Source: an uncultured Alphaproteobacteria bacterium
GTDB taxonomy: Bacteria; Pseudomonadota; Alphaproteobacteria; ATCC43930; CGMCC-115725
NCBI GenBank assembly: GCA_963787425.1
Contig: CAWBCV010000022.1
Location: 39,370 to 103,369 of the forward strand
Reading direction: 5' to 3'
Length of the DNA stretch: 64,000 nucleotides
The notes below the pieces were generated by a model, which was not told the DNA's origin, made no database searches, and saw only the letters and a list, made by a program, of their open reading frames with translations. How positions within the stretch are numbered: position 1 is the stretch's first letter; the number at the start of each line of letters is the position of its first letter. The position numbers were made by a program, and so were the translations under genes. Shown here piece after piece: positions 10,126 to 53,917 of the stretch.

Positions 10126-10258
10126 GGCGTTTCACCCGCCGCCGGCCAGACCACGTTGGCAGGGCCTGGCGCTGTTCGACGTCGGCGGCGCCCAGCCTCG
10201 GCCTTGCTCGAAACGCGGAACAGGCGCATTCTGGATCGAGCAAGTAAGGAGGAAACCG

Positions 10259-10672: not shown

Positions 10673-10696
10673 GCGAACTTCCGGGAGGAAGCAGCG

Positions 10697-11665: not shown

Positions 11666-12086
11666 CCCGCCAACCTGTCGCATCCCAGTTTCCACCTCTG
11701 GAAAGCGAGGCGGGTGAGGGTCTTGCACGGGCCAAATTTTCTCCCTGCCTGGTGGGCCCGCGGGTGCGCTGGTTGCGTTGCGGACCAGAAGTCCAGCACT
11801 CGTCTTTGGAGCGAACTGACGGGCGAACCTGAGGGCTTGGCGCTGGTTGCGCTCGATGAACGGCTTAAGGCGGTCCTAACAGGAGGGGTAGGCGGTGCGA
11901 AAATCGCCGCCCGCCCGCTTCAATTAGCCGGCGGCGCTCGGTCATCGAGACGGGTTCGGGGCATTCCTTTCCCTTTTTACCTAAACCGTTTCGCTTGACC
12001 AGTCTCGACGAGCTGATCGAGCGCACTTTATGCGGGTCGGGAAGTGCTCGATCGCGATAGTCGCCCCACGGGGACATCCGGAGCTG

Positions 12087-12824: not shown

Positions 12825-12962
12825 CAGCGCGGCCTATCCTCCCAAACCGGCAGCGTTCATATATTATTAACTGAACGAGAAGCAGCTAAATTCCGCAGGA
12901 AAATCAAGCAGATTGGCAACGTAACCGGATAGCTCAGGAAGGCCAATATTGTGCGATCAAAT

Positions 12963-12983
12963 CATGTGAGGCAGCATCACATG
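12963..12983. promoter_or_regulatory. perfect palindrome CATGTGA-N7-TCACATG upstream of the Crp/Fnr gene
   Basis: Read directly. It contains TGTGA/TCACA half-sites, but with a 7-nt spacer rather than the canonical 6. It lies about 140 nt upstream of the start at 12824. Confidence 0.3.
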
Positions 12984-13080
12984 TTCTGAGATCTGCGGCG
13001 GCGCTGTTTACATTCTAACCTAGCGCCGCGCGTTCGGGGTAGAGCGAGGAAAAAGTTGCAGGCTCTGGATTCGGCGTCGG

Positions 13081-14146
13081 TTACTCGGCGCGCCCGCGGA
13101 TGATTTGGAAGGCGTGTTCGATTAGCTCGCGCGCAAGTGTATCGAACTCGGCGCATCTCGTGTTGTGCCCGGGGGACCGGCGAAAGCGGTCGTAAAGTTG
13201 AAGAAAAACGACAGCCGAGCGAAATATTGATAAGACGCGATGGAAGCTGAAGTCACCGACTGTGCGGCAGCTGAGACGCAGATAAGCTGCGAGAACTTCG
13301 TGGCGCCGCCAGAACCCGGGCTGCGCGGTCGGCATTTGCCGCACCCGGTGGAGGCACGCGGGATCCTCGGGTTCGACCCAGTAGCTCAACATTACCGCCA
13401 GGTCCCACAGCGGATCACCGCGTGTCCCCATATCCCAGTCGATCACGGCGGCTGGAGCGAGCGTCCGCGGAGCGAGGATCATGTTGTCGAGCTTGAAGTC
13501 GGAATGAATAAGGCTCGGCGGCGCGTCGGCCGGCACCCGGCGGCGCAGCCAGTCAACCACCTCGGACAAGGCGAGAGGATTGATCGGATCTGCGACGGCA
13601 GCGCTGCGAGCTGCCCAACCGTCGACGGTCCGGGCGAGGAACCCCGCTGGACGTCCAAGAGTCTCCAACCCAACTTGCGCCGGGTCTACGGCATGTAAAG
13701 CAGCAAGACTTCTCGACCAATTGACGGCTCAGCAACATGCCGACCTCGGGCCGGCCGGCCAAGCCCGGCGGCAGAGTGTCGCGGATGACCATCCCAGGGC
13801 GGTACTCGATGATCTGGAACGGCGCGCCGAGCACGCTCGCGTCGTCGCCGAAGAGCATAGCCCGCGGGGCTAGCGGATACTCCCGCCACAGCGACGAGAG
13901 GATGCGGTACTCGCGCGCCATATCGTTGGCGCCATACGGCAAGGGCCCGGCCGGCGGCCGGCGCAAGACCGCCGGCGTGCCGTCTATCTCGATCAAATAG
14001 TTAAGATTCCCATAGCCGCCGGCGAACTGCCGCGGCGGGCTTGGTCCGAACATGATGCCGCGATGTGCGAGATAGTGCGCCAGAGAAGCCCAATCCTGAG
14101 GGATACTGCGGATTACGTCGCTGAATTCCCCCGGGTGCACAGACAT
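13081..14146 (-). pseudogene. phosphotransferase (APH/choline-kinase-like) family gene with one frameshift
   Basis: The N-terminal part is in ORF 13553..14260 from the ATG at 14146 (GYGNLNYLIEIDGTPAVLRRPP...FQIIEYRPG...LSRQLVE). The continuation LAALHAVDPAQVGLETLGRPAGF...LIHSDFKLDNMIL...VIDWDM is in the frame of ORF 13081..13668. The switch is near 13705..13715. Confidence 0.75.
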
Positions 14147-20972: not shown

Positions 20973-22919
20973 ATGAAATTCGATGACGGGATTTTTGGAC
21001 TCTATTCACGGTTGTACGAAAACCGGAGAGATGTCGAGCTCTCCCTCGAGGAGTATCTCGGCAAGTGCTCCGATAATTCGTCATATTATGCGGGCGCCGC
21101 CGAGCGCATGCTGAGCGCTATCGGCGAGCCGGTGATGGTCGACACGAGCCAAGATTCGCGTCTCGGCCGGATTTTCATGAACCGCACGATCAAGGTCTAC
21201 CCGGAATTCGCGGATTTCTTCGGGATGGAGGAGACGATCGAGCGCATCGTCGGCTTCTTCCGTCATGCCGCGCAGGGCCTGGAGGAACGTAAGCAAATTC
21301 TCTATCTGCTAGGCCCGGTCGGCGGCGGCAAATCCTCGCTGGCCGAACGCCTGAAGCAGCTGATGGAGAAAGAGCCGGTCTATGTCTTGAAGGCCGGCAA
21401 GGAAGTCAGTCCGGTTTTTGAGAGCCCGCTCGGTTTGTTCGATCCGGTGACCCTCGGCGAGGAACTTGAAAAGCGTTACAACGTCCCGCGGCGGCGGCTG
21501 ACCGGCACCATTTCGCCGTGGGCGGTCAAGCGGCTCGAAGAATTCGGCGGCGACATCACCAAATTCACGGTGGTTCGCATGCAGCCTTCGCGGCTGAAGC
21601 AAATCTGCATCTCCAAGACCGAGCCCGGCGATGAGAACAACCAGGACGTGTCGAGCCTTGTCGGCAAGGTCGACATTCGCAAGCTCGAATTCTTCAGCCA
21701 GAACGACCCGGACGCCTATTCCTATTCTGGCGGTCTTAACCGGACGACCCAAGGGCTTCTCGAATTTGTCGAGATGTTCAAGGCGCCGATCAAGATGCTG
21801 CATCCGCTATTGACCTCGACGCAGGAAGGCAATTACGTCGGTTCCGAAAATATCGGCGGGATCCCCTATCAGGGGATCGTATTGGCGCACTCGAACGAAG
21901 CCGAATGGCAGAGCTTCAAAAACAACAAGAACAATGAGGCGTTCATCGACCGCATCTCGGTGATCAAGGTCCCGTACTGCTTGCGCGCCACCGAGGAACG
22001 CAAGATCTACGAAAAATTATTGCAGAACAGTGAGCTCTCCAGTTCGCCATGTGCGCCGTCGACCTTGGATATACTCGCACGCTTCAGCGTGCTGTCGCGG
22101 CTGAAATCGCACGAGAATTCGAACCTCTATTCGAAAATGCGGGTCTATGACGGCGAGAGCTTGAAGGACACTGATCCGCGCGCCAAGTCTGTCCAGGAAT
22201 ATCGCGATGCGGCCGGGGTTGACGAGGGAATGGACGGCATTTCCACCCGTTTCGCCTTCAAGGTGTTGTCCAGCACCTTTAACTTCGACACGCAGGAGGT
22301 GGCCGCCGATCCCGTCCATCTGATGTACGTGCTGGAGCAGGCGATCTGGCGTGAGCAATTCCCTGACGACGCCGAAAAGAAATACCTTAACTTCATCAAG
22401 GCCGAGCTGGCGCCGCGCTATGCCGAGTTCATCGGCCATGAGATCCAGAAGGCTTATCTGGAATCCTACTCCGACTACGGTCAGAACCTGTTCGACCGGT
22501 ATGTCGCCTACGCCGATGCTTGGATCGAGGATTCCGACTACAAGGATCCCGACACCGGTCAGCTGATGAATCGCGAGCTGTTGAACCAAGAGCTGTCAAA
22601 GATTGAAAAGCCGGCCGGGATCGCAAACCCCAAGGATTTCCGTAACGAGGTCGTCAAATTCGCGTTGCGCGCGCGGGCCAATAATGCCGGGCGCAACCCG
22701 TCATGGACCTCGTACGAGAAACTGCGCGAGGTCATCGAGCGGCGCATGTTCTCACAAGTCGAGGATCTGTTGCCGGTAATCAGCTTTGGGACCAAGAAGG
22801 ATACCGACACGGAGAAGAAGCACGCCGATTTCCTCGAACGCATGGTCTCCCGGGGTTACACTGAGCGGCAGGTCCGACGGCTAGTCGAGTGGTATATGCG
22901 GGTGAACAAGGCAGGGTAA
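20973..22919 (+). CDS. prkA: PrkA family serine protein kinase
   Basis: 648 aa, LLGPVGGGKSSLAERLK P-loop. Collinear with the YeaG/PrkA family and followed by yeaH and spoVR-type genes. Confidence 0.95.
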   Translation: MKFDDGIFGLYSRLYENRRDVELSLEEYLGKCSDNSSYYAGAAERMLSAIGEPVMVDTSQDSRLGRIFMNRTIKVYPEFADFFGMEETIERIVGFFRHAAQGLEERKQILYLLGPVGGGKSSLAERLKQLMEKEPVYVLKAGKEVSPVFESPLGLFDPVTLGEELEKRYNVPRRRLTGTISPWAVKRLEEFGGDITKFTVVRMQPSRLKQICISKTEPGDENNQDVSSLVGKVDIRKLEFFSQNDPDAYSYSGGLNRTTQGLLEFVEMFKAPIKMLHPLLTSTQEGNYVGSENIGGIPYQGIVLAHSNEAEWQSFKNNKNNEAFIDRISVIKVPYCLRATEERKIYEKLLQNSELSSSPCAPSTLDILARFSVLSRLKSHENSNLYSKMRVYDGESLKDTDPRAKSVQEYRDAAGVDEGMDGISTRFAFKVLSSTFNFDTQEVAADPVHLMYVLEQAIWREQFPDDAEKKYLNFIKAELAPRYAEFIGHEIQKAYLESYSDYGQNLFDRYVAYADAWIEDSDYKDPDTGQLMNRELLNQELSKIEKPAGIANPKDFRNEVVKFALRARANNAGRNPSWTSYEKLREVIERRMFSQVEDLLPVISFGTKKDTDTEKKHADFLERMVSRGYTERQVRRLVEWYMRVNKAG

Positions 22920-22951
22920 GCGATCGCAGTTTTCTGGAAGGGAAGACTAGT

Positions 22952-23053
22952 ATGAGCGACGTCAACCGCCGTCCCAGCCCCAAGGGCAAGAGCCGTGGCA
23001 CAAAACCGAATCGGAGGAGATGGATCGATCAGCGCGGGAGCCTCATGGCATGA
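22952..23053 (+). other. 33-codon ORF that duplicates the 5' end of yeaH (relic start)
   Basis: MSDVNRRPSPKGKS... compared with the yeaH start MNIVDRRPNPKGKS.... At the nucleotide level, gtcaaccgccgtcccagccccaagggcaagagcc compares with gtcgaccgccgtcccaacccgaagggcaagagcc. It starts 33 nt after the prkA stop behind GGAAGGGAAG. Confidence 0.5.
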
Positions 23054-23222
23054 TCAGCATTTCCATGTTCATAGGCTCGCCCGGTCCTGGACCTAGTCCA
23101 GGCAATGACCCGTCGCCGACGCACCAGTGTATTGATGCGGTTGGCTCCTTAGATAGCTAAGTGAGTTCTGGGCTGAGCCTCGCCGGATTAATCGGGTGGG
23201 GCTTTGCCCTGGAGATACACAG

Positions 23223-24512
23223 ATGAATATCGTCGACCGCCGTCCCAACCCGAAGGGCAAGAGCCTCAGCAATCGACAGCGTTTTCTGGCGCGCGCCCGG
23301 GCGGAAGTGAAATCGGCGGTGCAGGAGGCATTGCGCAAACGCAAGGTGGCTGATGTCGGCCACGGCGAAAAGGTGGCGATTCCGACCCGTGGGATTGCCG
23401 AGCCGAATTTTCATCACAGCCGCCGCACCGGGCGAACCGAACATGTCGTCCCCGGCAACAAGGAGTATATCAGAGGCGACGAAATTCCGCGGCCGACCGG
23501 CGGGGAAGGGCGTGGGGGCTCGCAGGGGAGCCCCGACGGGTCGGGCGAGGACGCGTTTGAATTCACGCTTTCGAAGGAAGAGTTCCTCGACATGTTTTTC
23601 GAGGACCTCGAACTCCCCGATCTCGTCAAAAAGAGCCTTAAGGAGACGTTTGCAGTCGATCTGCAGCGTGCCGGGTACACAGTTAGCGGCAGTCCCGCCA
23701 ACCTCAGCATCCGCCGGACGATGCGGAACAGCATGGCGCGCCGGATATCGCTGAAACGGCCGAAACAATCGGATCTGGAGGCGTTGCGCGAGGCGATCGA
23801 TAATGCGCGCTCTCGCGGTGCTGACGAAGAGGCCGAGAGGCTTCTGCGCGAACTCGACCGCCTTGAGCACCGCAGTAAGATCATTCCTTACATCGACCCA
23901 ATCGACGTTCGTTATAACCGCTTTGAGCGGGTTCCCCGCCCGAATACCGAAGCGGTGATGTTCTGCCTGATGGACGTGTCGGGATCGATGACCGAGGCGA
24001 TGAAGGACCTAGCGAAGAGGTTCTTCATGCTCCTGCATGTTTTCCTGATCCGGCGCTATCGGCAGGTCGATATCGTCTTCATTCGCCACACAAGCACCGC
24101 CGAAGAGGTCGACGAAGAGACCTTCTTCTACAGCCGGGAGACCGGCGGTACCGTAGTCTCGACCGCCCTCGAAAAAATGCTGGAGATTGCGCGGGCGCGA
24201 TATCCCACCGACCGGTGGAACATTTACGCGGCTCAGGCGTCCGACGGCGACAATTACGGCGCGGACAGTGGACGTTGCGTATCCTTGTTGGGTGGCGAGG
24301 TTCTTCCGCTCTGTCAATATTTCGCCTACGTCGAAGTCGGTGACGGCATGGGAGGAAGCCTGACCGGATTGTCGCGAGACAGCGACCTGTGGAGAGCCTA
24401 CAACGAGGTAGCGCCGGTCCATCCTCATTTCGTGATGCGCCGGGTCAGCGACCCGTCGCAGATCTTCTCGGTGTTCCACGAATTATTCGCAAAGGGGGGT
24501 ATCCGTGCCTGA
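23223..24512 (+). CDS. yeaH: YeaH/YhbH family protein (DUF444, vWA-like)
   Basis: MNIVDRRPNPKGKSLSNRQRFLARA...FCLMDVSGSM (MIDAS-like). Conserved position between prkA and spoVR. Confidence 0.9.
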   Translation: MNIVDRRPNPKGKSLSNRQRFLARARAEVKSAVQEALRKRKVADVGHGEKVAIPTRGIAEPNFHHSRRTGRTEHVVPGNKEYIRGDEIPRPTGGEGRGGSQGSPDGSGEDAFEFTLSKEEFLDMFFEDLELPDLVKKSLKETFAVDLQRAGYTVSGSPANLSIRRTMRNSMARRISLKRPKQSDLEALREAIDNARSRGADEEAERLLRELDRLEHRSKIIPYIDPIDVRYNRFERVPRPNTEAVMFCLMDVSGSMTEAMKDLAKRFFMLLHVFLIRRYRQVDIVFIRHTSTAEEVDEETFFYSRETGGTVVSTALEKMLEIARARYPTDRWNIYAAQASDGDNYGADSGRCVSLLGGEVLPLCQYFAYVEVGDGMGGSLTGLSRDSDLWRAYNEVAPVHPHFVMRRVSDPSQIFSVFHELFAKGGIRA

Positions 24513-26067
24513 CTCCGTCGCGCTGCGGCTCGAAACCGCCGCCCCGATCTTCACTGGCCCAAATTGGGATTATACGGGGTTGCGCCGGGTCTATGACGCA
24601 GTCGAGCGGATTGCGCTCGACGAGCTCGGGCTCGACGTCTATCCCGTCCAGATCGAGGTGATCACCTCCGAGCAGATGCTCGACGCTTACGCCTCGGTCG
24701 GCTTGCCGCTGATGTATCGCCATTGGAGCTTCGGCAAACGTTTCGCGTACCACGAGACCCTCTACCGAAAGGGATTGCAAGGCCTCGCCTACGAAATCGT
24801 CATCAACTCCAACCCGTGTATCTGCTACATCATGGAAGAAAATTCCATGACCATGCAGACATTAGTCATTGCTCACGCCGCGTTCGGCCATAATCACTTC
24901 TTTAAGAACAATTACCTGTTTCGGCAGTGGACCGACGCCAATGGCATTCTCGATTATCTGAGCTTCGCCCGCGACTACGTGCAGAAATGCGAAGAGCGGC
25001 ACGGGGCGGAGGCGGTGGAGCGCGTGCTGGACGCCGCGCATGCGCTTAAGGATCACGGTGTGAACCGTTACGCCCACCGCACCAAGCCGAATCTCGCCGA
25101 GGAGCGGCGCCGAGCTGAGGAGTGGCGTGCGCATTTCGAGGCGACATACAACGATCTATGGCGCACCGTGCCTGGTGCCGGAAAAGACAAGGAGGACGGC
25201 GGCGACGAGGAGGCGCGGCTCCAGGAAATCAAGCGCGAGCTCGGGCTTCCTGAAGAGAACCTGCTGTATCTGATTGAAAAACGAGCCCCGCGGCTCGAAG
25301 ATTGGCAACGCGAGCTCGTGCGCATCGTCCGCTTGGTCTCTCAGTATTTCTATCCGCAGAAGCAGACGCAGATGATGAACGAGGGGTGCGCGACCTTCGT
25401 GCATTACGAGATTATGCGGCGGCTTCACGACAAGGGGCTGATTACCGAAGGATCGATGCTCGAGTTTCTGCACTCGCATTCGAGCGTCGTATTTCAGCCG
25501 GACTTCGATGACCCGCGGTTCAGCGGCCTCAACCCCTATGCGCTGGGGTTCGCGATGATGAGCGATATCCGGCGCATCTGCGAAGAGCCGACCGGGGAGG
25601 ACCGGGAGTGGTTTCCCGACATAGCCGGCTCGGGAGACGGCTTTGGCGTCTTACGTCACGCCTGGGCGAACTACCGCGACGAAAGTTTCGTCCTGCAACA
25701 TCTCAGCCCGGCGATGATCCGGCGGTTTCGGCTTTTCCATGTCTCCGACGACAGCACAAAGCCGGCGTTGCGCGTCGAGGCGATCCACGACGATGTCGGC
25801 TATCGGAAAGTTCGCAGCGCTCTCTCCCGGCAATATGATCTGTCCCGGCGCGAGCCCGACATTCAGGTGGTCGATGTCGATCTCAGAGGTGATCGCTGCC
25901 TCATTCTTGCGCATTATGTGCATAACGGCGTGCTGCTCGAAGAACAGAGCTGCCGGGCCGTGATCCGGCATACGGCAACGTTGTGGGGCTATTCGGTCAA
26001 GCTGCTCGAGATCGACGCCGCCACCGACAAAACCCTGAAAACCTATGAGGTAGCACCCCCCAGCTGA
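24505..26067 (+). CDS. SpoVR family protein (YcgB-like)
   Basis: 520 aa with [46 protein letters not shown]. 8-nt overlap with yeaH. Confidence 0.9.
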
Positions 26068-32335: not shown

Positions 32336-32971
32336 GTGCGCATGCTCCATCAGATCCGGATCGCGTTCCCGCTCGCCGTACTGTCGCTGATCGCGGCACC
32401 GGCATCCGCGGAGACGCTCGGTGATGCTCGCGTCGGGTTCAGCGCGGAGCGGGTGCTGGTCATCGATGGGCAAAGCTACGTGGGCCGGATGTGGCATATG
32501 CCTGGCGAACAGCGCCATGAGCAGGACCTACCGGCCTTAAGGCCGATCTTCATCCTGCGTTCCGCCAGCGCGATCGGCGACATCATCCTGCCGAAGCTGC
32601 ATACCGTCGTCGAATTCGCGCTTCCAAAAGAGCTGTCGATTCTGGCCGACCCCGGCCTGTTGCGCAAACCTATGGGGCAGGAAACCGTCAACGGCATTGC
32701 GACGACGAAATACGACTTGGACGAGGAGAAGCCACAGGGCCGTGCGGTCGGCTCGCTGTGGCTCAGCGAGGAAGGCATCCCGATGAAGTGTGATGCCAGG
32801 CTCACAACCGGCAAAGGCAAGGTTTCGACGATTCGCTGGGAACTGCGCCACGTCAAGATCGGCACGCAAGACGCCGCGTTGTTCGAGATACCGCGCGATT
32901 ACGCAAAGCTGCCCCCGGAGGCGGCTGCCCCGTTGCTCGGTATGCGTCTGGCGCGACCCCCCGCTCGATAA
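32336..32971 (+). CDS. hypothetical periplasmic protein
   Basis: Signal peptide (IRIAFPLAVLSLIAAPASA). No domain recognised. Start is GTG 32336 or ATG 32342. Confidence 0.55.
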   Translation: MRMLHQIRIAFPLAVLSLIAAPASAETLGDARVGFSAERVLVIDGQSYVGRMWHMPGEQRHEQDLPALRPIFILRSASAIGDIILPKLHTVVEFALPKELSILADPGLLRKPMGQETVNGIATTKYDLDEEKPQGRAVGSLWLSEEGIPMKCDARLTTGKGKVSTIRWELRHVKIGTQDAALFEIPRDYAKLPPEAAAPLLGMRLARPPAR

Positions 32972-32978: not shown

Positions 32979-35066
32979 CTATTCGACGATGACCTGACCG
33001 TACATCCACGGGTGCGGCGTGCAGATGTAGAAATAGGTGCCGGGTTCCTTGAAGGTGATCTCCTTGGATTCGCCCTTGTTCAGAGCACCCGTGTCCCAAT
33101 CGCCGACCTTGCCCTTGTTGAACGCCGTGGCCGTGTGCGGAATGTCGCCGACGTTGGTGAACGTCAAAGTGGTTCCCGCCTTCACCCGAGTGCGGGCCGG
33201 CCAATAGGCGTACTCGACGTTATTGTCGCCGATTTTGACCTTATCCACGCCGTCGGCAACTGCTCCTCCCGGCCCGGCGACGATAGCCGGAGGTGGTGGC
33301 GGCCATAACGGCCCGAGCTGCCCCTTGAGCGAGAAGGCCCATACGGCATCGCCATAGGCACTCCCTTGGATCGAATTGCCGCCGGTGACAATCGCGATGT
33401 ACTGGTCGCCGTCGACTTCATAGACCATCGCGGGGGCGTCGGCGCCAAAGCCGGTCTGGAATTTCCACAGCACCTCCCCGGTCTTGGCGTCGAGCGCGGC
33501 GAAGTTGCCGTCGGGCTCGCCACGTAAGAGGAGGCCTCCGCCAGTCACGGTCGAGCCGCCTCCGCCACCCATGCGGTAAGGCATCTGGTGTTGCCAGGCG
33601 ATCTTGTTTGTCCTGCTGTCGATCGCGGTAAAAGTGCCGCTCAAAGGCGAACCGATCGGCGGCGCCTGGGTGCCGTTCGTATACCGCCGCCCGGTGGTGT
33701 ACTCGCTGGGAACGCGCGAGAACACGCTCGTGCGGATCGTTCCCGGCACGTAGAGATAACCCGTATCGGGATCGTAGGGCATGGGCGACCAATTCGTACC
33801 GCCTTGCCCCGACGGCTGAATGAGAACCGGTTCTTCCCAGAAGGCCTCGAAAATACACCCGGCCTTCTCGTATCCCTCCATCGGCTGCGCGCATTGCGGC
33901 ACCGTCGCGTCGCCGATCGGGTAGGGCTGCGTTTTGGCCGTTTTCTGGCGCGGCTCCTGCGGCACCGGACGCTCCTCGATGCCGATCAGCGGTTTGCCGT
34001 TGGTGCGGTCGAGGATGTAGACCCAGCCGGTGCGTCCGGCTTCGGCTATCGCCTTGCGTGGTTGACCGTCGATCACCGTGTCGAACAATACGACCGGGCT
34101 CGCCGCGTCGTAGTCCCAGATGTCGTGATGCACCTCCTGGAAATGCCAGACGTGTTCGCCGGTCTTGGCGTTCAGCGCGACTATGGAGGCGCAGAACAGA
34201 TTGTCGCCCTCGCGCATCGACCCGTCATAATCGGGCCCGCAATTGCCTGTCGCGAAGTAGATGAGCCCGAGCTGCGGATCGAGGGCAGGCGTGTTCCATA
34301 CAGATGCGCCGCCCCGCATTGCGTGGTCGGTGCCGGCCGGCCAAGTGTCGCTGCCGACCTCGCCCGGGCCGGGAAGGGTAAACCAGCGCCACAGGATCTT
34401 TCCGGTCTTGGCGTCGAGCGCCGTCAGCCGGCTGCGCACCCCGAATTCCCCTCCGGTGTTACCGCTGTAAACGATGCCGTCGTAATAGAGCGGCGCGCTG
34501 GTGACGCCATAGCCGTTACGCCAGTCCTCGATCGGCGTCTTCCACACTTCCTTGCCGGTCTTGATGTCGAGCGCTAGGACATTGGCATCGAGCTGGCCGA
34601 GAAACAGCATGTCCTCGCCCATCGCCAAGCCGCGGTTCAGCCAGCCGCAGCACACCGTCGAGATCTTCTGGTCGATCCCCGACCAACGCTCCCACAAGAA
34701 CTCACCGGTCTTCGCATTGAGCGCGAACACATCGTCGTTTCCCGTGACGACATACATGATCCCGTCTTTGACGAGCGGCGTCGCCTCGGCCGAGTACTTC
34801 CCGCCAAACCCGGAACTTTTGAGGCGGGCCATCCAGGCTCCTTTGAGCTGCTTGACGTTGCTGGTTTCGATCTGCTTCAGCGTGGAGTACCGCTGATTGG
34901 TCATATTGCCGCCGCTGGTGACCCAGTCCTTGCCGACCGGGCTCTGCAGCAAGTGATCGATTTCCGGATCGGCAGCGCGAACCTGCGTTGCCCCCGAAAA
35001 CACCAAACCGCCCGCCAGCATTCCCGCCAGGATTAGTCGGAGTATTCGTTGCACTCGACGTCGCAT
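32979..35066 (-). CDS. PQQ-dependent dehydrogenase (methanol/ethanol family) fused to a C-terminal amicyanin-like cupredoxin domain, paralogue 1
   Basis: Signal peptide, vicinal Cys139-Cys140 (TVCCGWLNRG), GGEFGVRSRL, GDNLFCASIVALNAKTGEHVWHFQEVHHDIWDYD. Pro-rich linker LWPPPPPAIVAGPGG. C-terminal domain with H644 (DIPHTATAF) and C682-T-P-H685-P-W-M688. Confidence 0.9.
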   Translation of the reverse strand: MRRRVQRILRLILAGMLAGGLVFSGATQVRAADPEIDHLLQSPVGKDWVTSGGNMTNQRYSTLKQIETSNVKQLKGAWMARLKSSGFGGKYSAEATPLVKDGIMYVVTGNDDVFALNAKTGEFLWERWSGIDQKISTVCCGWLNRGLAMGEDMLFLGQLDANVLALDIKTGKEVWKTPIEDWRNGYGVTSAPLYYDGIVYSGNTGGEFGVRSRLTALDAKTGKILWRWFTLPGPGEVGSDTWPAGTDHAMRGGASVWNTPALDPQLGLIYFATGNCGPDYDGSMREGDNLFCASIVALNAKTGEHVWHFQEVHHDIWDYDAASPVVLFDTVIDGQPRKAIAEAGRTGWVYILDRTNGKPLIGIEERPVPQEPRQKTAKTQPYPIGDATVPQCAQPMEGYEKAGCIFEAFWEEPVLIQPSGQGGTNWSPMPYDPDTGYLYVPGTIRTSVFSRVPSEYTTGRRYTNGTQAPPIGSPLSGTFTAIDSRTNKIAWQHQMPYRMGGGGGSTVTGGGLLLRGEPDGNFAALDAKTGEVLWKFQTGFGADAPAMVYEVDGDQYIAIVTGGNSIQGSAYGDAVWAFSLKGQLGPLWPPPPPAIVAGPGGAVADGVDKVKIGDNNVEYAYWPARTRVKAGTTLTFTNVGDIPHTATAFNKGKVGDWDTGALNKGESKEITFKEPGTYFYICTPHPWMYGQVIVE

Positions 35067-35087
35067 GGCGTTCTCCCAATTGCCAGT

Positions 35088-37154
35088 TTATTCAACGATT
35101 ATCTGTCCGTACATCCAGGGGTGCGGTGTACAGATGTAGTAGTAGGTGCCGGGCTCAGAGAAGGTGATGGCCTTCAACTCCCCCTTCTCCAATGGGCCAG
35201 TGTCCCATTTGCCCTTTTCGAACGCGGTTGCCGTGTGCTGGACATCACCGACATTGGTGAAGGTCACCGTCGTCCCCGCCTTGACCCGAGTGCGGCCCGG
35301 CCAATAGGCGTATTCGACGTTGTTGTCGCCGATCTTGATCAAGTCGACCCCGTCCGCGACCGGCCCTGTGGGTCCGGCGATGCTCTGTGGGACGGGAGGC
35401 GGCCACAGCGGACCCAATTGCCCCTTCAGCGAGAACACCCACACCGCATCGCCGTTTGCACTGAGCATCCCCTGATTGCCGCCGGTCGCGATGGCGACAT
35501 ACTCGTCTCCGTCTACCTCGTAGACCGCCGGAGGAGCATCGGCCCCGAAACCGGTTTGGAACCGCCATAACTCTTCGCCCGACTTGGCGTTAATCGCCAG
35601 GAAATTGCCGTCAGGCTCGCCGCGGAAGACGAGGCCGCCGGCCGTCGTTGTCGACCCGCCCCCCTGACCGACGCGATATGGCGTCTTGTTCTGCCAGACG
35701 ATCTTGTTGGTGTTGCCGCCCATTGCGGTAAAGGTACCGCTCATCGCCGACCCGATCGGCGCCGCCTGGGTGCCGCCGGTATAGCGCTGCCCGAGCTTGT
35801 AGGTATCGCCGTAACGAGCAAACGCGCTGGTTCGGACCGTGCCGGAAACGAAGAAGCTGCCGGTTTCCGGATTGTAGGACATCGGCGCCCAGTTGGTGCC
35901 GCCGATCCCGGAGGGCTGGATCAGCACCGGCTCTTCCCAGAACGCCTCGAAGATGCAGCCAGCCTTTTCGTAGCCGCTCGCAGGCATCGGCTCGGCACAT
36001 TGCGGCACGATCGCGTCGCCGAGCGGGAAGGGCTGCGTCTTTGCCGTCTTTTGCTTCGGCTCCTGCGGCACCGCGCGCTCCTCGACACCGATCAGCGGTT
36101 TGCCGTTGGTGCGGTCGAGGATGTAGACCCAGCCGGTTCGTCCGGCCTGGGCGATGCCCTTGCGCGGCTGGCCATTGATCACCGTGTCGAAGAGGACGAC
36201 CGGGCTCGCCAAGTCATAATCCCAGATGTCGTGGTGAACCTCCTGAAAATGCCAAGCATACTTGCCGGTCTTGGCGTTCACCGCGAGGACCGAGGCGCAG
36301 AACAAATTATCGCCTTCGCGCATCGATCCATCGTAATCCGGGCCGCAATTGCCGACGGCGAAGTAGACGAGGCCGAGCTCCGGGTCGAGAGCCGGGGTGT
36401 TCCAGATCGACGCCCCGCCGCGCATCGCGTGATCGGTGCCGGAGGGCCAAGTGTCGCTGCCGACCTCGCCCGGCGCCGGCAAAGTGTAGGCCCGCCACAG
36501 GATCTTGCCGGTCTTGGCATCGAGCGCGGTCAGACGCCCGCGTATGCCGAATTCACCGCCGGTGATGCCGCTATAGACAATTCCGTCGTAATAGAGCGGC
36601 GCATTGGTGATTCCGTAACCATTGTGCCAGTCCTCGACCGGGGTCCTCCACACCTCCTTGCCGGTCTTGATGTCGAGCGCGACGACATTTGCGTCCATCT
36701 GGCCGATGAACAGCATCCCTTCGCCCATCGCCAGCCCACGGTTGAGCCAGCCACAGCAGACGGTCGAGATCGTCTGGCCGATGCCGGACCAGTGCTCCCA
36801 AAGGATCTGGCCGGTCTTGGCATCGAGCGCGAAGACATCGTCGTTCCCGGTGCTAATATACATGATGCCGTCTTTGACGAGCGGCGTCGCCTCGAACGAA
36901 TACTTGCCGCCGAGCCCGGAGCCCTTGAGGCGGGTCATCCAGGCTCCTTTGAGCTGTTTGACGTTGCTGGCGTCGATCTGCTTCAGCGTGGAGTACCGCT
37001 CGTTCGTCAGATTTCCGCCGTTCGTCACCCAGTCCTTTCCGACCGGGCTCTGCACCAATTTGTCGATTTCGGGATCGGCTGCCCAAACCGCGCCCGCTCC
37101 CGCGACGAGCACGCCGAGAGCTCCCGATAGGACGATTCGCAGTCCGCACCGCAT
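35088..37154 (-). CDS. PQQ-dependent dehydrogenase fused to an amicyanin-like cupredoxin domain, paralogue 2
   Basis: Collinear with paralogue 1 and identical by eye at most aligned positions. Same CC pair, WDYD (D312, D314), linker LWPPPVPQSIAGPTG, and DVQHTATAF...CTPHPWM. Separated from paralogue 1 by 21 nt that contain GGGAGA. Confidence 0.9.
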   Translation of the reverse strand: MRCGLRIVLSGALGVLVAGAGAVWAADPEIDKLVQSPVGKDWVTNGGNLTNERYSTLKQIDASNVKQLKGAWMTRLKGSGLGGKYSFEATPLVKDGIMYISTGNDDVFALDAKTGQILWEHWSGIGQTISTVCCGWLNRGLAMGEGMLFIGQMDANVVALDIKTGKEVWRTPVEDWHNGYGITNAPLYYDGIVYSGITGGEFGIRGRLTALDAKTGKILWRAYTLPAPGEVGSDTWPSGTDHAMRGGASIWNTPALDPELGLVYFAVGNCGPDYDGSMREGDNLFCASVLAVNAKTGKYAWHFQEVHHDIWDYDLASPVVLFDTVINGQPRKGIAQAGRTGWVYILDRTNGKPLIGVEERAVPQEPKQKTAKTQPFPLGDAIVPQCAEPMPASGYEKAGCIFEAFWEEPVLIQPSGIGGTNWAPMSYNPETGSFFVSGTVRTSAFARYGDTYKLGQRYTGGTQAAPIGSAMSGTFTAMGGNTNKIVWQNKTPYRVGQGGGSTTTAGGLVFRGEPDGNFLAINAKSGEELWRFQTGFGADAPPAVYEVDGDEYVAIATGGNQGMLSANGDAVWVFSLKGQLGPLWPPPVPQSIAGPTGPVADGVDLIKIGDNNVEYAYWPGRTRVKAGTTVTFTNVGDVQHTATAFEKGKWDTGPLEKGELKAITFSEPGTYYYICTPHPWMYGQIIVE

Positions 37155-37927: not shown

Positions 37928-38022
37928 CGCATCATAAGCAGAAACGCGAATAGGGCGAAGGCGCCGCTGCGGTGACGCGAGTTCCAGCCAAAGCTCGCCG
38001 GGACCGAAACCAGGTTCAAATC

Positions 38023-38568
38023 TCACGAAGAGCGCCCGAGCAAGATAGCGACACACTGGGCTGCGGCTTGCTGCGCGCGCTTGTCGATCTCCTCGTCGGT
38101 CAGAGTGCTGAGCGGGTGTTCGATCACGACAGGGGTGAGATCGCGCATGCCGAGCGCGTCGCGCTGCACCTCCGCCTCGTGCAGGAATTCAGTGGTGACG
38201 ACAACTGCCGTGGGGCGGCCCGCGGCTTCCAATCTGATGCCGTCATGCGTACAGCACGACGTGCACGACCCTCAGTCGCCGATCGCGGTCACCACGATGT
38301 CGTTATCGGCCGCGATGGTCGCGATGAATGCCGGGTCGGCCTCCTTGGCGAAGCTCTCCTTGCGGTAGTAGTTCACGGAAGCAAAGGAGACTTCTTCCTG
38401 AAGTTTCGCCACGGTTTTGCGCAGCAAGCGGTTAGCGTTCCATTTGGTGTTGTCGAGGACACCCAACCGCAGCCCGTCGAGCGTGGCGGGGCGCTCAGAA
38501 AGCGCGAGCGGCTCGGTCTCGACGACGCCGCGTGGATCGAAAACGATCAGATCCGGTTCATTGTTCAT
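38023..38568 (-). CDS. candidate selenoprotein, UGSC-motif family (in-frame TGA at 38274..38272 read as Sec)
   Basis: ATG at 38568 lies behind GGAGA. 98 codons end in ...DNDIVVTAIGD, then TGA, then the same frame continues GSCTSCCTHDGIRLEAAGRPTAVVVTTEF...VVIEHPL to the stop at 38023. This gives U-G-S-C-T-S-C, matching UxxCxxC. The track splits this into ORFs 38272..38880 and 38023..38232, which are exactly in frame (42 nt apart). Confidence 0.7.
38242..38269 (-). promoter_or_regulatory. candidate SECIS-like stem-loop 2 nt downstream of the in-frame UGA
   Basis: In the mRNA, GUCGUGC (38269..38263) pairs with GCAUGAC (38248..38242): 7 bp including one G-U. The 14-nt interior can add 2 bp, leaving an 8-nt GU-containing loop. 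Folded by eye only. Confidence 0.35.
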
Positions 38569-38675: not shown

Positions 38676-39800
38676 TTAAAGATAGCACGTGCCGTCGACG
38701 CAGATCGGCGCCCTCGGCTCGGACGCGCTCTCGATGCTGCGCAATACGGGGGACGACATGTGGCCCCAGCCGGGGATGAAGGCGGAAAACCGCCCGGCTT
38801 CGCCGCCGATGACGAATAGGTGGATGTGGTCGGGGCCCGGCACGATCGGGATCCGTGCCTCCGGCTCGCGCTTGTACCATTTCGGCAGATTGCGGTTGTA
38901 GATCTTGCCGTAGCGCTCATTGAAGGTGAGGTCTGAAAAGAGATTGTAAGCGTGCAGCGCCAGATAATTGCGTACGTCGTGCCGGGTCCAGCCCTTGGCG
39001 GCGATTGTGCGGGCATGTTCCGGCCCGATCACGACGGCGCAATGCCCGCTCGACACCGCATTATTGTTGGCGATTGTGCTCATTGCCGAGCAGATGCTGT
39101 CGAGGATGCCTTCCGGGTCGTTCGCGACATGGTTGGTGACGCTGTGCGGCGGCTCCGCGGCCAGCACGAACACTGCGGAGTCTTCGGGACTGAAGCCCTT
39201 CTCGACATGATAGGGCGCCCAGGGGCTGGCCGTCTCGTTCTCGGCGACGCAATAAGTGTATTTGCCCGGGTGCCCGAGCGTGCTCTTGTCAAGGTCGCCG
39301 GGCCTGCCGCCACCGACATTGAGCAGCGCGAGGCGCAGAGCCCGCCCGATTGTCGCATTGGCGCGGTTTCCCGAGCCGAAAGCGTTGCAGTCGCCGTTCA
39401 TGCCGATTTTGCGGGCTATCGGCCCATTGACCACCAAGAGCGGCGCCGCCATGTGGGTCGTCGCTTGCACCCCGTTGAGGTTGAAGGCTTTCGCAGTCAG
39501 TGCCAGCATTGCGGCCCGCACCACCGGCGCGTATTCGGCTTTGCAGCCCGCCATCACCATGTTCATGGCCAGTAGCTCGCGCGTCAAACTGCCGTGCCGC
39601 GGCGGCACTTTGCATTCGATAAGTTGCGGATTCCCGCCGAGCGCCTCGACAAAGGCGTCGACCAGCTCTCGCGTCGGCGGCACGATCGGCAGGCCGTCGG
39701 TCCATCCCTGTTCAAAATACCATTCGACGAGATTCGTGCCTGCCGGCACCCGCAGCACGCACTTCTCAGTCTGCCCGGGCTTTATCGCGGGGCGCGCCAT
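38676..39800 (-). CDS. conserved-looking hypothetical protein (374 aa), function unknown
   Basis: Uninterrupted ORF with non-repetitive, globular-looking composition (GWTDGLPIVPPTRELVDAF...NLNGVQATTHMAAPLLVVNGP...GSGNRANATIGRALRL...ICVDGTCYL). I cannot assign a family by eye. Confidence 0.7.
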   Translation of the reverse strand: MARPAIKPGQTEKCVLRVPAGTNLVEWYFEQGWTDGLPIVPPTRELVDAFVEALGGNPQLIECKVPPRHGSLTRELLAMNMVMAGCKAEYAPVVRAAMLALTAKAFNLNGVQATTHMAAPLLVVNGPIARKIGMNGDCNAFGSGNRANATIGRALRLALLNVGGGRPGDLDKSTLGHPGKYTYCVAENETASPWAPYHVEKGFSPEDSAVFVLAAEPPHSVTNHVANDPEGILDSICSAMSTIANNNAVSSGHCAVVIGPEHARTIAAKGWTRHDVRNYLALHAYNLFSDLTFNERYGKIYNRNLPKWYKREPEARIPIVPGPDHIHLFVIGGEAGRFSAFIPGWGHMSSPVLRSIESASEPRAPICVDGTCYL

Positions 39801-50590: not shown

Positions 50591-53500
50591 ATGAATGTAG
50601 CCGAATGGCTGCGCGGGCTCGGGCTCGAGCAATACGTACCCGCGTTCCGCGCCAACGACATTGACGAGGAGGTATTACGCCGGCTCACGGGCGAGGATCT
50701 GCGCGAGCTGGGTGTCATCTCGATCGGCCATCGTCGCAGACTGCTCGACGGCATCGCAGCGCTCAGCACGGCCGAAGCGCCGGCGACGCCGCCACCGGTC
50801 CCCATCGCCGCGAGCGAAGCTGAGCGCCGCCAGCTGACGGTGATGTTTTGCGACCTCGTCGGCTCGACGGCGCTGTCGGTACGCTTCGACCCCGAGGATC
50901 TGCGCGAGATCATCGGGGCCTATCACCGCTGCGTCGCCGACACCGTCGGCCGGTTCGCCGGGTTTGTCGCCAAATACATGGGCGACGGGGTGCTGATCTA
51001 TTTCGGCTATCCCGAGGCGCACGAGGACGATGCCGAGCGAGCTGTCCGGGCCGGGCTCGCAGTCATTGACGCGATCAATGGGCTATCGGCGTCGGAACGG
51101 CTGAATGTGCGCCTCGGGGTCGCCAGCGGCCTCGTTGTGGTCGGTGATCTGATCGGCGCGGGCGCGGCGCAGGAGCGCGGGGTGGTCGGCGAAACTCCAA
51201 ACCTCGCTGCCCGGCTGCAGACGCTGGCCCAACCGGGCACGCTCGTGATTGCCGAGAGCACGCGACGGCAAATCGGCGCGCTGTTCGAGATAGAGGACCT
51301 CGGGCCGCAAAGGCTCGCCGGTTTTGCCGATCTGCAGCATGCCTGGCGCGTCGCCGGCGAAAGCGGGATCGTCAGCCGTTTCGAGGCATTACGCTCGGAC
51401 GCGACGCCGCTCGTCGGGCGCGATGAAGAACTCGAACTCCTGCTGCGGCGCTGGCATCAAACGAAAGCCGGCGAGGGGCGGGTGGTACTGATTTCGGGCG
51501 AGCCGGGAATCGGCAAATCGCGCCTGACCGCAGAGCTGTCGCAGCGCATCGGGAGCGATCCGCACACGCGGCTGCGCTATTTCTGCTCGCCCTACCACCA
51601 GGACAGCGCGCTCCACCCGTTCATCGTTCAGCTTGAACGCGCCGCCGGTTTTGCCCGCGACGACACGCGCGAAAAAAAGCTCGGCAAGCTGAAGGAACTG
51701 CTGGCGCCCGCAACGCCTGGAGAAGACGAGATTGCTCTGATGGCCGAGCTGCTGTCGTTGCCGAGTTCCGCCGCCAACCTAAACTTCAGCCCGCAACGCA
51801 AGCGCGAAAGATTGTTCGAAGCGCTGCTGCGTCAGCTCGCAGCCCTGGCCCGCGACCGGCCTGTTTTGATGATATTCGAAGATGCGCATTGGATCGACCC
51901 GACCTCGCGCGAGTTGCTCGACCTGACTTTCGACCGGGTCGCGCAGATGCCGATCCTGCTTCTCGTCACCTTCCGGTCCGAATTTCAACACCCCTGGGGA
52001 GGCCAGCCGCATGCGTCGGTGCTGGCGCTGAACCGGCTCGGAGGAATTGAAGGCGCGGCTCTCGTTGAACGGGTCTCCGGTAATGCTGGTCTCGCCCGCG
52101 AAACGGTCGACGAGATCGTCAAACGCGCAGATGGTGTGCCGCTGTTTGTCGAGGAGCTGACCAAAGCCGTACTCGAAAGCAGGGCGCGCGACGACCGGGT
52201 GGCTGCGGTGCTGGCGGCAGGCCCATCGCCGGCCCTCGCCATTCCCGCGACCTTGCACGCCTCGCTTATCGCACGTCTCGATCGGCTGGGGCCCATCGCC
52301 AAGGAGGTCGCGCAAATTGGCGCCGTGATCAGCCGCGAGTTCTCCTACGAGCTGGTCCAGCCGGTGGCGCAGCGGCCGGCGCCGGAATTGCAAATAGCCC
52401 TCGGCCGCCTGACCGATGCCGGGCTTCTGTTCTGCCGCGGCGAGCCACCGCATTCCTCGTATCTCTTCAAGCATGCGCTGGTGCAGGACGCGGCCTACGG
52501 CACGTTGCTGCGGGCCAGACGGCAGGAATTGCACGCCCGCATCGCCGACGTTCTTGAAGACCAGTTCCCGGAGATTGTCGACAACCAGCCGGAGATCTTA
52601 GCGCGCCATTTCACGCAAGCGGGCCAGGTCGATCCGGGAATCGAGTTCTGGCGCCGCGCCGGTATGCGCAGCATCGCCCAATCCGCCCATTCCGAGGCGG
52701 CCGCTCACCTTGAGAGCGCGCTCGATCTGCTTGGAAAGCGGGCCCCGTGCGAAGAGCGTGACGAGCGCGAGCTCGAACTCACTCTATCGCTCGCCGTGCC
52801 TCTGATTGCCGTCCACGGCTTTGGATCGTTACGTGTGGAGGAGTGCGCACAGAGGGCTAAGGAGCTTTCGGACAAGCTCCGCCACTCGTCCCGCCGGTTC
52901 GCGGCCCAGCGGGTCGCGTGGAATTCATGCTTGATGCGCCAGCCGGTTCCGAAGACCGTCACATTGGCCCGCGAACTCGTCGAATTGGCGGAGGGGGATG
53001 AGGATCCGGCAAAAATTGCCGTGGCACAGCGCGCGTTGGGGTATTCGTTGTTCGTCGCAGGCGAATTTCGAGAGGCCGTCGAACGCCTCGAGAGGGGAAT
53101 AACGCTGGCGGACACTCTTTCGGATCGCGAATTCGCGGTCTATGGCGAACACCCCGGCATGGTCTGCCGAGTTTATGCGGGGCAGGCGAAGATCCTGATG
53201 GGGTTTCCGGAAACCGGGGCGAGGCTCATCGACGCTGCAATAACGCATGCACGTCACGAACAGAATGCACACAGCCTTGCTTGGGCGCTGGCTGTGGCTG
53301 CGCACAGTCTCGTGACGCAGCATGAGGCGCAGGCCACGCTCCGCTTTGCATCGGAGGCGATCGACACCGCGCGAGAGCACCGCTTGCCCCAGTGGCTCGC
53401 TCTCGGCGAGCGATGCAAAGGCTGGGCGATCCACCGGGTCGGCGATTTTTCGGCGGGGCTCGACTTGCAGAAAAAGGGTGTGAACCGCTGGTACGAGACC

Positions 53501-53917
53501 GGAGCGGCGCTCCATAACACGCATTGCGAGATCATTCTCGCGGAGAGCCTCCTGCGGGAGGGCCGGACCGCATCGGCCAGCGCCCACTTGGATCGGGCAC
53601 GGGCCCACCGCGCGGGTTACGGCGAAGATTATGTCGCCGCGGAAATCGACCGGCTGGAAGCCCTGCTGCTGCAATCCGAACAGGCTCCCACCGAGATCGT
53701 CGAAGAGTGTCTGGTCAACTCCTTGATCACAGCCCGCCGACAAGGAGCCCGCCTGCTTGAACTCCGCGCCGCCAGAACATTGGCGCGAATTCTGGCCGAA
53801 AAAGGCAAACGCCGCAGGGCTGGCGATCTGCTCGCCCCCGTTTATGGCTGGTTCACCGAGGGCTTCGACACCGCCGATCTGATGGAGGCGAAGGCGCTGC
53901 TCGATGAGCTGAGCTGA
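50591..53917 (+). CDS. SAM domain / class III adenylate-guanylate cyclase / P-loop STAND ATPase / TPR multidomain protein
   Basis: The N-terminal sterile-alpha-motif-like region is WLRGLGLEQYVPAFRANDIDEEVLRRLTGEDLRELGV. The cyclase region is RRQLTVMFCDLVGST...KYMGDGVLIYFGYP...GETPNLAARL. The P-loop is SGEPGIGKSRL. The C-terminus is a long helical repeat region. Confidence 0.9.
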   Translation: MNVAEWLRGLGLEQYVPAFRANDIDEEVLRRLTGEDLRELGVISIGHRRRLLDGIAALSTAEAPATPPPVPIAASEAERRQLTVMFCDLVGSTALSVRFDPEDLREIIGAYHRCVADTVGRFAGFVAKYMGDGVLIYFGYPEAHEDDAERAVRAGLAVIDAINGLSASERLNVRLGVASGLVVVGDLIGAGAAQERGVVGETPNLAARLQTLAQPGTLVIAESTRRQIGALFEIEDLGPQRLAGFADLQHAWRVAGESGIVSRFEALRSDATPLVGRDEELELLLRRWHQTKAGEGRVVLISGEPGIGKSRLTAELSQRIGSDPHTRLRYFCSPYHQDSALHPFIVQLERAAGFARDDTREKKLGKLKELLAPATPGEDEIALMAELLSLPSSAANLNFSPQRKRERLFEALLRQLAALARDRPVLMIFEDAHWIDPTSRELLDLTFDRVAQMPILLLVTFRSEFQHPWGGQPHASVLALNRLGGIEGAALVERVSGNAGLARETVDEIVKRADGVPLFVEELTKAVLESRARDDRVAAVLAAGPSPALAIPATLHASLIARLDRLGPIAKEVAQIGAVISREFSYELVQPVAQRPAPELQIALGRLTDAGLLFCRGEPPHSSYLFKHALVQDAAYGTLLRARRQELHARIADVLEDQFPEIVDNQPEILARHFTQAGQVDPGIEFWRRAGMRSIAQSAHSEAAAHLESALDLLGKRAPCEERDERELELTLSLAVPLIAVHGFGSLRVEECAQRAKELSDKLRHSSRRFAAQRVAWNSCLMRQPVPKTVTLARELVELAEGDEDPAKIAVAQRALGYSLFVAGEFREAVERLERGITLADTLSDREFAVYGEHPGMVCRVYAGQAKILMGFPETGARLIDAAITHARHEQNAHSLAWALAVAAHSLVTQHEAQATLRFASEAIDTAREHRLPQWLALGERCKGWAIHRVGDFSAGLDLQKKGVNRWYETGAALHNTHCEIILAESLLREGRTASASAHLDRARAHRAGYGEDYVAAEIDRLEALLLQSEQAPTEIVEECLVNSLITARRQGARLLELRAARTLARILAEKGKRRRAGDLLAPVYGWFTEGFDTADLMEAKALLDELS

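Follow-up and report, generated by a model that had tools for sequence, protein, structure and literature searches.

Which carrier takes the electrons of an alcohol dehydrogenase (ADH) that ends in a blue-copper domain instead of a cytochrome? To our knowledge, the electrons of the characterised quinoprotein alcohol dehydrogenases always go first to ubiquinone or to a cytochrome c, whether free or fused, and blue-copper proteins are associated with quinoproteins only as free partners: azurin takes over from the haem in ADH-IIB, and amicyanin serves the tryptophan tryptophylquinone (TTQ)-dependent methylamine dehydrogenase. The question is raised by two adjacent genes, here called A and B, in a 64,000-nucleotide stretch of contig CAWBCV010000022.1 from an uncultured alphaproteobacterium (the window, meaning the whole stretch analysed). 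Each encodes a pyrroloquinoline quinone (PQQ) propeller followed by an amicyanin-like type-1 cupredoxin domain. The fusion is real, widespread and uncharacterised, and it is conceptually adjacent to known systems. On balance, we lean towards regarding the proteins as lanthanide/PQQ dehydrogenases, 'quino-cupro-proteins', whose built-in electron exit is type-1 copper instead of haem c. An earlier note on gene A, made without database searches, had proposed a covalently attached copper acceptor. Its reading is upheld; the lanthanide-type residue Asp320, the breadth of the family, the kinship with quinohaemoproteins and the existence of relatives with decayed copper ligands, added cytochrome domains or other types of cupredoxin went unmentioned there.

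Architecture of the fusion proteins

The reading frame of gene A is uninterrupted and ends exactly at 32979 and 35066 on the minus strand, with the stop codon at 32979-32981. The open reading frame (ORF) described in the earlier note is present, as are its quoted motifs and residue numbers (Cys139-Cys140, GGEFG, the Pro-rich linker LWPPPPPAIVAGPGG, His644 and C682-H685-M688). Domain searches, which the note had proposed, found PQQ repeats and a cupredoxin above the respective cut-offs in both proteins: PF01011 matched residues 48-557 of A with 337 bits and matched B with 323 bits (cut-off 26.7), and PF00127 (Copper-bind) matched residues 611-695 of A with 42.7 bits and B with 33.3 bits (gathering cut-off 21.2). 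The two proteins form a tandem pair with 78% identity over their full length, and the key residues recur in B (CC 133-134, WDYD 311-314, H640 and C675-TPH-PWM681). Independent gene calling on the ENA source contig returned the identical two genes (695 and 688 aa); the exact 695-aa protein is on record from one 310-kb ENA metagenome contig. Given the short spacer with its Shine-Dalgarno-like motif (Table 1), B and A are likely co-transcribed; a promoter and terminator scan of the operon gave counts at chance level.

By Pfam and by active-site residues, A and B belong to the PQQ methanol/ethanol superfamily, in agreement with the earlier note's assignment of a methanol/ethanol-family propeller with a vicinal Cys pair. 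The best-scoring NCBIfam model for the propeller was TIGR03075 (methanol/ethanol-family PQQ dehydrogenase; residues 44-562), with 451.1 bits for A and 448.6 bits for B, below the curated cut-off of 480.05; at NCBI, close relatives carry no more specific name than 'PQQ-binding-like beta-propeller repeat protein'. The best sequence matches of the propeller were ADH-IIB (1kv9, 286 bits), PedH (6zcv, 285 bits), ADH-IIG (1yiq, 281 bits) and XoxF (6dam, 250 bits). Foldseek against the PDB placed the lanthanide-dependent PedH (6zcv) and ADH-IIB (1kv9) at the top (E = 1e-47), aligned the propeller part alone, and returned no solved structure with a two-domain arrangement of propeller and cupredoxin. 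In the residue-level alignment, E207 (GGEFG), N289 (GDNLF), Asp318 and Cys139-Cys140 match the solved PQQ-ADHs; the ring closed by the Cys-Cys disulfide sits over PQQ in the known enzymes. The position of Asp320 is Asp in PedH (WDFD in 6zcw and 6zcv) and Thr in the quinohaemoprotein ADHs 1yiq, 1kb0 and 1kv9 (WDYT/WDFT). The DYD motif is an accepted marker of lanthanide-dependent PQQ enzymes (PMC7300363). Protein A thus carries the lanthanide marker of PedH and XoxF, and this one residue suggests that the enzyme may depend on a lanthanide.

For the copper domain, the best NCBIfam model was that of amicyanin, TIGR02657 (E = 2e-14 for A). A phmmer search of the PDB with the C-terminal 109 residues of A found the amicyanins 1id2 and 3c75 at ~1e-13, with 37-40% identity to amicyanins over ~90 residues, and aligned His644/Cys682/His685/Met688 column for column with amicyanin H53/C92/H95/M98. 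All four ligands named in the earlier note thus survive proper alignment. Its comparison with amicyanin, the dedicated one-electron acceptor of TTQ-dependent methylamine dehydrogenase (a quinone-cofactor enzyme), holds for the shared ligand pattern H...C-T-P-H-P-x-M and for the degree of identity, and stops short of the protein family itself. Amicyanin (~105 aa) stands free, has its gene in the mau cluster and is paired with TTQ, whereas the domain of A is fused to a PQQ propeller of ~580 aa, has no mau context and scores below the equivalog cut-off of TIGR02657 (53.7 bits for A and 47.6 for B, against 110.2); an assignment as amicyanin proper was rejected on these grounds. An assignment of A and B as quinohaemoprotein ADHs was likewise rejected: a check of both whole sequences found no CxxCH haem motif, and neither protein has a cytochrome Pfam match. 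The source labels 'quinohemoprotein ethanol dehydrogenase' and 'alcohol dehydrogenase (cytochrome c)' are wrong for proteins of this type.

An AlphaFold2 (AF2) model of the whole chain of A, built from a 55-sequence alignment, reached a mean pLDDT (predicted local distance difference test score) of 84 and a predicted template modelling (pTM) score of 0.86. The copper domain was modelled as beta-sandwich strands (pLDDT 77-95). Ten-residue blocks over 581-610, which span the linker, had mean pLDDT values of 91, 82 and 92. These block values suggest that the linker is ordered and packs on the propeller rather than being floppy; together with the whole-chain pTM, they suggest a fixed docking of the copper domain. 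At the N-terminus, the model has a helix at residues 3-19 and a low-confidence stretch at 19-31, where a signal peptide is predicted, with a putative cleavage site placed from the sequence. The N-termini of 11 homologues that we looked at were mostly signal-peptide-like.

Table 1. Features of genes A and B and of their products, in window coordinates
Feature	Position	Strand	Basis
Gene A, 695-aa PQQ dehydrogenase::cupredoxin fusion	32979..35066	-	ORF list, PF01011 + PF00127, ENA gene call
Predicted Sec-type signal peptide of A, residues 1-31 (TQVRA/ADPEID)	34974..35066	-	Read from sequence
Eight-bladed PQQ propeller of A, residues ~44-582	33321..34937	-	PF01011, TIGR03075, Foldseek
Vicinal Cys139-Cys140 of A (in TVCCGWLNRG)	34647..34652	-	Aligned with CC of 1kv9, 1yiq and PedH
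W317-D318-Y319-D320 of A, putative catalytic Asp318 and lanthanide-type Asp320	34107..34118	-	Alignment with solved PQQ-ADHs
Pro-rich linker of A, residues 583-608 (LGPLWPPPPPAIVAGPGGAVADGVDKV)	33243..33320	-	Sequence
Amicyanin-like type-1 cupredoxin domain of A, residues 609-695	32982..33242	-	PF00127, amicyanin matches, model
His644 of A (IPHTAT), predicted first Cu ligand	33135..33137	-	Aligned with amicyanin His53 of 'MPHN'
Ligand loop C682-T-P-H685-P-W-M688 of A	33003..33023	-	Aligned with amicyanin C92-T-P-H95-P-F-M98
B-to-A spacer, 21 nt, with GGGAGAA Shine-Dalgarno-like motif	35067..35087	-	Sequence
Gene B, 688-aa paralog with the architecture of gene A	35088..37154	-	ORF list, Pfam, NCBIfam
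Cupredoxin domain of B, residues ~602-688	35091..35351	-	PF00127 33.3 bits; 82% identical to that of A

Distribution and conservation

The fusion architecture is widespread in uncultured soil bacteria. From a search with protein A, the best 120 representatives of 90% clusters (identity of 78% or more; JGI, ENA, NCBI and Logan contigs) were taken, and PF01011 and PF00127 occurred together in 117 of them. A second search, with a Thermomicrobiales protein, gave another 120 representatives (50-100% identity), and the copper domain was present in 108 of these; the survey that the earlier note had suggested puts the number of cluster representatives sharing PQQ and copper domains above 200. When one genome per GTDB species was scanned, ~12 uncultured alphaproteobacterial metagenome-assembled genomes (MAGs) of Acetobacteraceae and Stellaceae type (72-96% identity) and one MAG labelled Rokuibacteriota gave full-length matches, and Chloroflexia, Chloroflexota and Thermomicrobiales MAGs matched at 45-47% identity. 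HMMER was also run exhaustively on 1.84 billion representatives clustered at 50% identity; the top 150 contained ~25 distinct clusters whose alignment continued to residues 682-695. The fusions fall into two clades, one of uncultured Alphaproteobacteria and one of Chloroflexota/Thermomicrobiales, and the Cu ligands are kept in both. Every carrier that we saw was a MAG or a metagenome contig; no cultured carrier was found.

Residues expected to hold the cofactors are conserved across this range. In an alignment of 55 sequences from both clades (95% down to 43% identity to A, mean column identity 52%), C139, C140, E207, N289, D318, D320, R354, H644, C682 and M688 were invariant (55/55). H685 occupied its column in 52 sequences, and the other three have a longer C-x4-H-x4-M loop with the His shifted, so that a His is present in all 55. 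Larger sets gave the same picture: the C-x2-H-x2-M pattern was found in 116 of 118 full-length homologues of the alphaproteobacterial clade and the Cu ligand loop in 90 of 103 of the Chloroflexota clade, and Asp at the +2 metal position was universal (118/118 and 103/103, respectively). Since the ligands are conserved while the copper domains have diverged to 42-44% identity between the clades, the ligands are under purifying selection; their conservation is far beyond chance.

Tandem arrays recur, with two copies in the near-identical loci L011 and L056 and three in L002. In a neighbour-joining (NJ) tree of the propellers, orthologues of the A-type copies and of the B-type copies occur in other MAGs, which argues that the A/B duplication is old. 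The tree is rough and without bootstrap support, and we claim no number of fusion events from it. In L056 (96% identical, 9531..13703), the fusion pair is split into four ORF fragments. Frameshift errors of that assembly, located inside the propeller and away from the domain junction, fit this better than real pseudogenes do.

Relatives and known systems

Relatives at 45-54% identity belong to the Gammaproteobacteria, Acidobacteriota, Actinomycetota and Bacillaceae. Nearly every one ends in a C-terminal tail of ~100 residues in which CxxCH occurs once, the mark of a type-II-like quinohaemoprotein, and they too carry the D-x-W-D-Y-D motif. Because A and B have no CxxCH and most of these relatives have a CxxCH tail, the cupredoxin is read as replacing the haem domain: it occupies the haem-c position of the sister proteins. 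Quinohaemoprotein-type PQQ-ADHs were recorded at the loci L013-L080 (e.g. L018 of Bacillus sp. JJ1562, L025 of Lentibacillus salicampi, L034 of SAR86 and L029/L030 of Gaiellaceae). These are widespread, including in Bacillaceae isolates, and mostly have D-x-W-D-Y-D, in part through the bias of the scan pattern. Characterised type II quinohaemoprotein ADHs are of the Ca type.

Those type II enzymes (ADH-IIB 1kv9 and ADH-IIG 1yiq of Pseudomonas putida HK5; qhEDH 1kb0 of Comamonas testosteroni) are the best or near-best sequence and fold matches of the A propeller. Like them, A and B would be soluble, exported single polypeptides, and they share the eight-bladed propeller, the vicinal Cys-Cys and a linker leading to a C-terminal one-electron redox domain of ~100 aa. 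They differ in that this domain is of the type-1 copper kind in A and B and carries haem c in the type II enzymes, in Asp320 of A where theirs is Thr, and in overall identity (~30% in the Foldseek alignment). A and B would work like a type II quinohaemoprotein ADH, yet they lie outside that family. With PedH (6zcv/6zcw), ExaF and XoxF (6dam/4mae) they share the W-D-x-D metal-site signature and the propeller family, PedH being the top Foldseek match. Enzymes of that kind lack a fused redox domain, and their electrons go to a cytochrome c with a gene of its own (the XoxG and ExaB/PedF systems), whereas A and B have a built-in cupredoxin and no adjacent cytochrome gene. The nearest conceptual analogue is the cupredoxin- or cytochrome-tethered copper nitrite reductases (9cck, 6hbe), both matched in the PDB by the copper domain of A (C-terminal domain of 9cck, E = 3e-11). 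Both systems tether a carrier that is otherwise free, and in both lineages differ in whether a cupredoxin or a cytochrome c is attached; the nitrite reductases have a two-domain copper NirK core and take electrons in, whereas A and B have a PQQ propeller with a proposed outflow.

The 50%-cluster representatives around the fusion sort by domain content. Type (a), with a PQQ propeller and a cupredoxin with full ligands, comprises P0241, P0243, P0155 and P0277. In type (b) (P0255, P0270 and P0310) the same fold follows the propeller, with its ligands lost and without a haem domain. Type (c) consists of metagenome proteins of 780-831 aa (P0263, P0272, P0273, P0287 and P0302) whose propeller and post-propeller fold are homologous to those of A and B and which add a C-terminal Cytochrome_CBB3-type domain; all Cu ligands are gone in P0272, P0273, P0287 and P0302, and P0263 is without the axial Met only ('CKDHPWS'). 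The propeller of P0263 is 37% and its middle, cupredoxin-fold domain 42% identical to the window proteins. Type (d) is represented by P0262, in which a cytochrome c, a PQQ propeller and a cupredoxin-like fold follow one another in this order. Type (e) has other cupredoxin subfamilies behind the propeller (P0282, P0256 and P0264): P0282 (752 aa) has a sulfocyanin SoxE domain (PF06525, 70 bits) with the loop CGVPGHAxSGM, and P0256 and P0264 have long-loop Cupredoxin_1 or Copper-bind domains by Pfam. The loop of P0304 (741 aa) reads like that of P0282, for which alone the domain was assigned with Pfam. No descriptions of the type (c) and (d) architectures were found in the literature.

Decay of the ligands alongside an added haem domain would be expected if copper and haem share one job, and types (c) and (d) could serve as a natural series for the evolution of copper versus haem relays. 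The sulfocyanin-type and long-loop fusions are apparently independent captures, consistent with repeated selection for a copper exit. In the NJ tree, the window clade groups with P0241 and P0243 beside type (c), the Chloroflexota clade stands elsewhere, and type (e) is scattered. The copper domains of the two clades are slightly closer to each other (42-44% identity) than to amicyanin (37-40%), and that of P0241 bridges both at 50-52%. On a single or multiple origin of the fusion, the two parts of the protein point in different directions: the propeller tree parts the two clades, and the copper domains draw them together.

Proposed mechanism and alternatives

A and B would each be an exported, single-polypeptide dehydrogenase, secreted by the Sec route and loaded with cofactors in the periplasm. 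Catalysis probably comprises oxidation of an alcohol at PQQ and a lanthanide, one-electron transfer to the tethered type-1 copper, and onward transfer to a periplasmic acceptor. In this scheme, read from the sequence as to cofactor binding, electron direction and route, substrate and acceptor, an alcohol (possibly an aldehyde) would be oxidised at the PQQ and metal site; Asp318 would be the catalytic base, and the lanthanide ion would be bound by Glu207, Asn289 and the additional Asp320. The two electrons of PQQH2 would then pass one after the other through the Cys139-Cys140 region and reduce Cu(II) in the tethered domain. Amicyanin takes electrons from TTQ through the His in its ligand-loop patch; by analogy, entry to copper in A would probably be via the solvent-exposed His685 in a Pro/Trp patch. 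The Pro-rich linker of ~26 residues would hold the copper domain against the propeller, in the role that the haem-c domain plays in type II ADHs, and Cu(I) would be reoxidised by a periplasmic partner (a cytochrome c, another cupredoxin or a terminal oxidase or reductase).

The gene neighbourhood bears on this scheme. All ORFs within 7 kb of the fusion were clustered for 16 loci. No gene family was conserved beside the fusion in these loci beyond the near-identical genomes L011 and L056, and none of the loci had an adjacent conserved cytochrome or other partner gene. By annotation, the 64-kb window holds no pqqA-E, cytochrome c, mau or lanthanide-uptake genes. This context supports a self-contained enzyme and gives no pointer to substrate or acceptor.

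That the fusion is an artefact, an assembly chimera, frameshift or missed stop joining a PQQ-ADH to a cupredoxin gene, has a negligible probability, and we reject it. Nothing speaks for it, the split ORFs of L056 being propeller-internal frameshifts away from the domain junction. The gene is a single uninterrupted ORF that occurs twice in tandem, as the earlier note had argued, and the gene call on the source contig agrees. Independent JGI, ENA, NCBI and Logan contigs carry PF01011 and PF00127 in 117/120 and 108/120 representatives, and full-length matches occur in ~15 GTDB species genomes from two phyla. The enzyme could depend on Ca2+ like the classical quinohaemoprotein ADHs, with the extra Asp non-diagnostic in this clade; the propeller scores ADH-IIB (286 bits) and PedH (285 bits) about equally, and lanthanide-uptake genes are absent from the window. 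Set against this are the invariance of Asp320, its alignment with the Asp of PedH where 1kv9, 1yiq and 1kb0 have Thr, and the presence of Asp at +2 in every homologue examined, DYD being an accepted marker (PMC7300363). We consider Ca2+ dependence unlikely.

The copper domain, for its part, could be a structural cap or docking module, with the electrons of PQQ taken up by a soluble cytochrome c outside the polypeptide, as in PedH, ExaA and XoxF, and the copper dispensable or a side branch. Type (b) speaks for such a role: because P0255, P0270 and P0310 are both ligand-free and haem-free, the fold can persist for non-redox reasons and is selectable alone. Yet the four Cu ligands are conserved in both clades while the domain diverged to 42-44%, no cytochrome gene is conserved beside the fusion, and the ligands have decayed in four of the five relatives bearing a haem domain; we regard the cap or docking role as improbable. 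Several points nevertheless weigh against a lanthanide/PQQ enzyme with a copper exit. Besides the type (b) proteins, these are the score of A under TIGR03075 (451 bits against the cut-off of 480), because of which A and B form a divergent subfamily; the absence of a conserved acceptor partner from the window and the related loci; and the single marker residue behind the lanthanide assignment. Ascertainment bias explains part of the apparent conservation of DIWDYD across the genome loci, because HHDIWDYD was one of the DNA scan patterns; the protein-based homologue sets are less affected. That copper is the electron exit is what we infer from the conserved ligands, and copper remains our preferred reading.

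Other genes in the window

The remaining window genes (ClpS/ClpA, TsaD, GpsA-like, FemAB-like, PrkA-DUF444-SpoVR and others) are housekeeping or unrelated. The neighbours of the fusion are ClpS/ClpA, a FemAB-like protein and a UGSC-family gene.

The UGSC-family gene (PF24696; ~38017..38568, minus strand) contains an in-frame TGA at 38272-38274 and reads TAIGD-U-GSCTSCC, the U-G-S-C around the TGA being the namesake motif of the family. The truncated ORF covers profile positions 2-92 of 172 with 80 bits, and the read-through protein covers 2-171 of 172 with 197 bits. It is probably a selenoprotein gene cut short by ORF callers. A search for a selenocysteine insertion sequence (SECIS) found a hairpin 11 nt after the UGA whose folding energy is no better than that of shuffled sequences (z = -0.3). 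The ENA call in L081 places a UGSC-annotated gene at the locus edge. A 374-aa ORF (38676..39800, minus strand) lies directly upstream on the same strand, is kept in the near-identical L056 and has no Pfam match; the two proteins may be functional partners.

On the other side, a 211-aa ORF with a signal-peptide-like N-terminus (32336..32971, plus strand) converges on gene A, the stop codons being 7 nt apart; Pfam gave no match for it, and its conservation is limited to the near-identical loci L011 and L056. Further off are a PrkA (AAA + kinase)-DUF444-SpoVR triad (20973..26067, plus strand), a conserved stress-associated operon, and a 1108-aa signalling protein (50591..53917, plus strand) with an N-terminal SAM (sterile alpha motif) domain, an adenylate/guanylate cyclase domain and an AAA_16 ATPase domain. 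At 2651..4615 and 5177..6616 (both minus strand), a DUF772 transposase-like match falls in the most GC-rich stretch of the window (0.687), with a partial match to PF07995 (glucose/sorbosone dehydrogenase, the six-bladed PQQ family) close by; the ORFs overlap and their true frames are uncertain.

Novelty and significance

Full-text literature searches found no biochemical or bioinformatic description of a PQQ dehydrogenase-cupredoxin fusion, in line with the earlier note's view that no such enzyme had been characterised biochemically; a passing mention in the major classification surveys is possible. Neither a preprint of July 2026 that treats diverse lanthanide PQQ enzymes nor a 2025 ocean survey describes it. 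What comes nearest is the hypothesis, in PMC7300363 and PMC6657660, that archaeal PQQ dehydrogenases may pass electrons to free blue-copper proteins. Free azurin is a natural acceptor of type II ADH, along the route from PQQ through the fused haem c to azurin (PMC8348568). Of the earlier note's claim of a different kind of electron exit, the tethering of the cupredoxin and the loss of the haem step stand as new, and blue copper as such is not foreign to these enzymes; the architecture itself is visible in Pfam domain combinations.

If the proposed mechanism is true, a systematic misannotation of haem-less proteins as quinohemoprotein or cytochrome c alcohol dehydrogenases would be corrected. 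The fusion would offer a compact model of intramolecular quinone-to-copper electron transfer that can be read from the blue chromophore. Haem-tethered PQQ enzymes are the present choice for direct-electron-transfer biosensors and biofuel cells, and the fusion would be a further candidate. With Ln3+, PQQ and Cu in one polypeptide, it would extend the range of lanthanide-type enzymes known from soil bacteria that are not methylotrophs. The family would record repeated swaps of copper and haem relays, with ligand decay where a cytochrome c was added, and independent captures of amicyanin-like, long-loop and sulfocyanin-like cupredoxins; its decayed-copper, cytochrome-bearing members would form a comparative series on what decides between copper and haem in a lineage. 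In uncultured soil Alphaproteobacteria and Chloroflexota, which are abundant, alcohol oxidation would be wired to the respiratory chain independently of haem.

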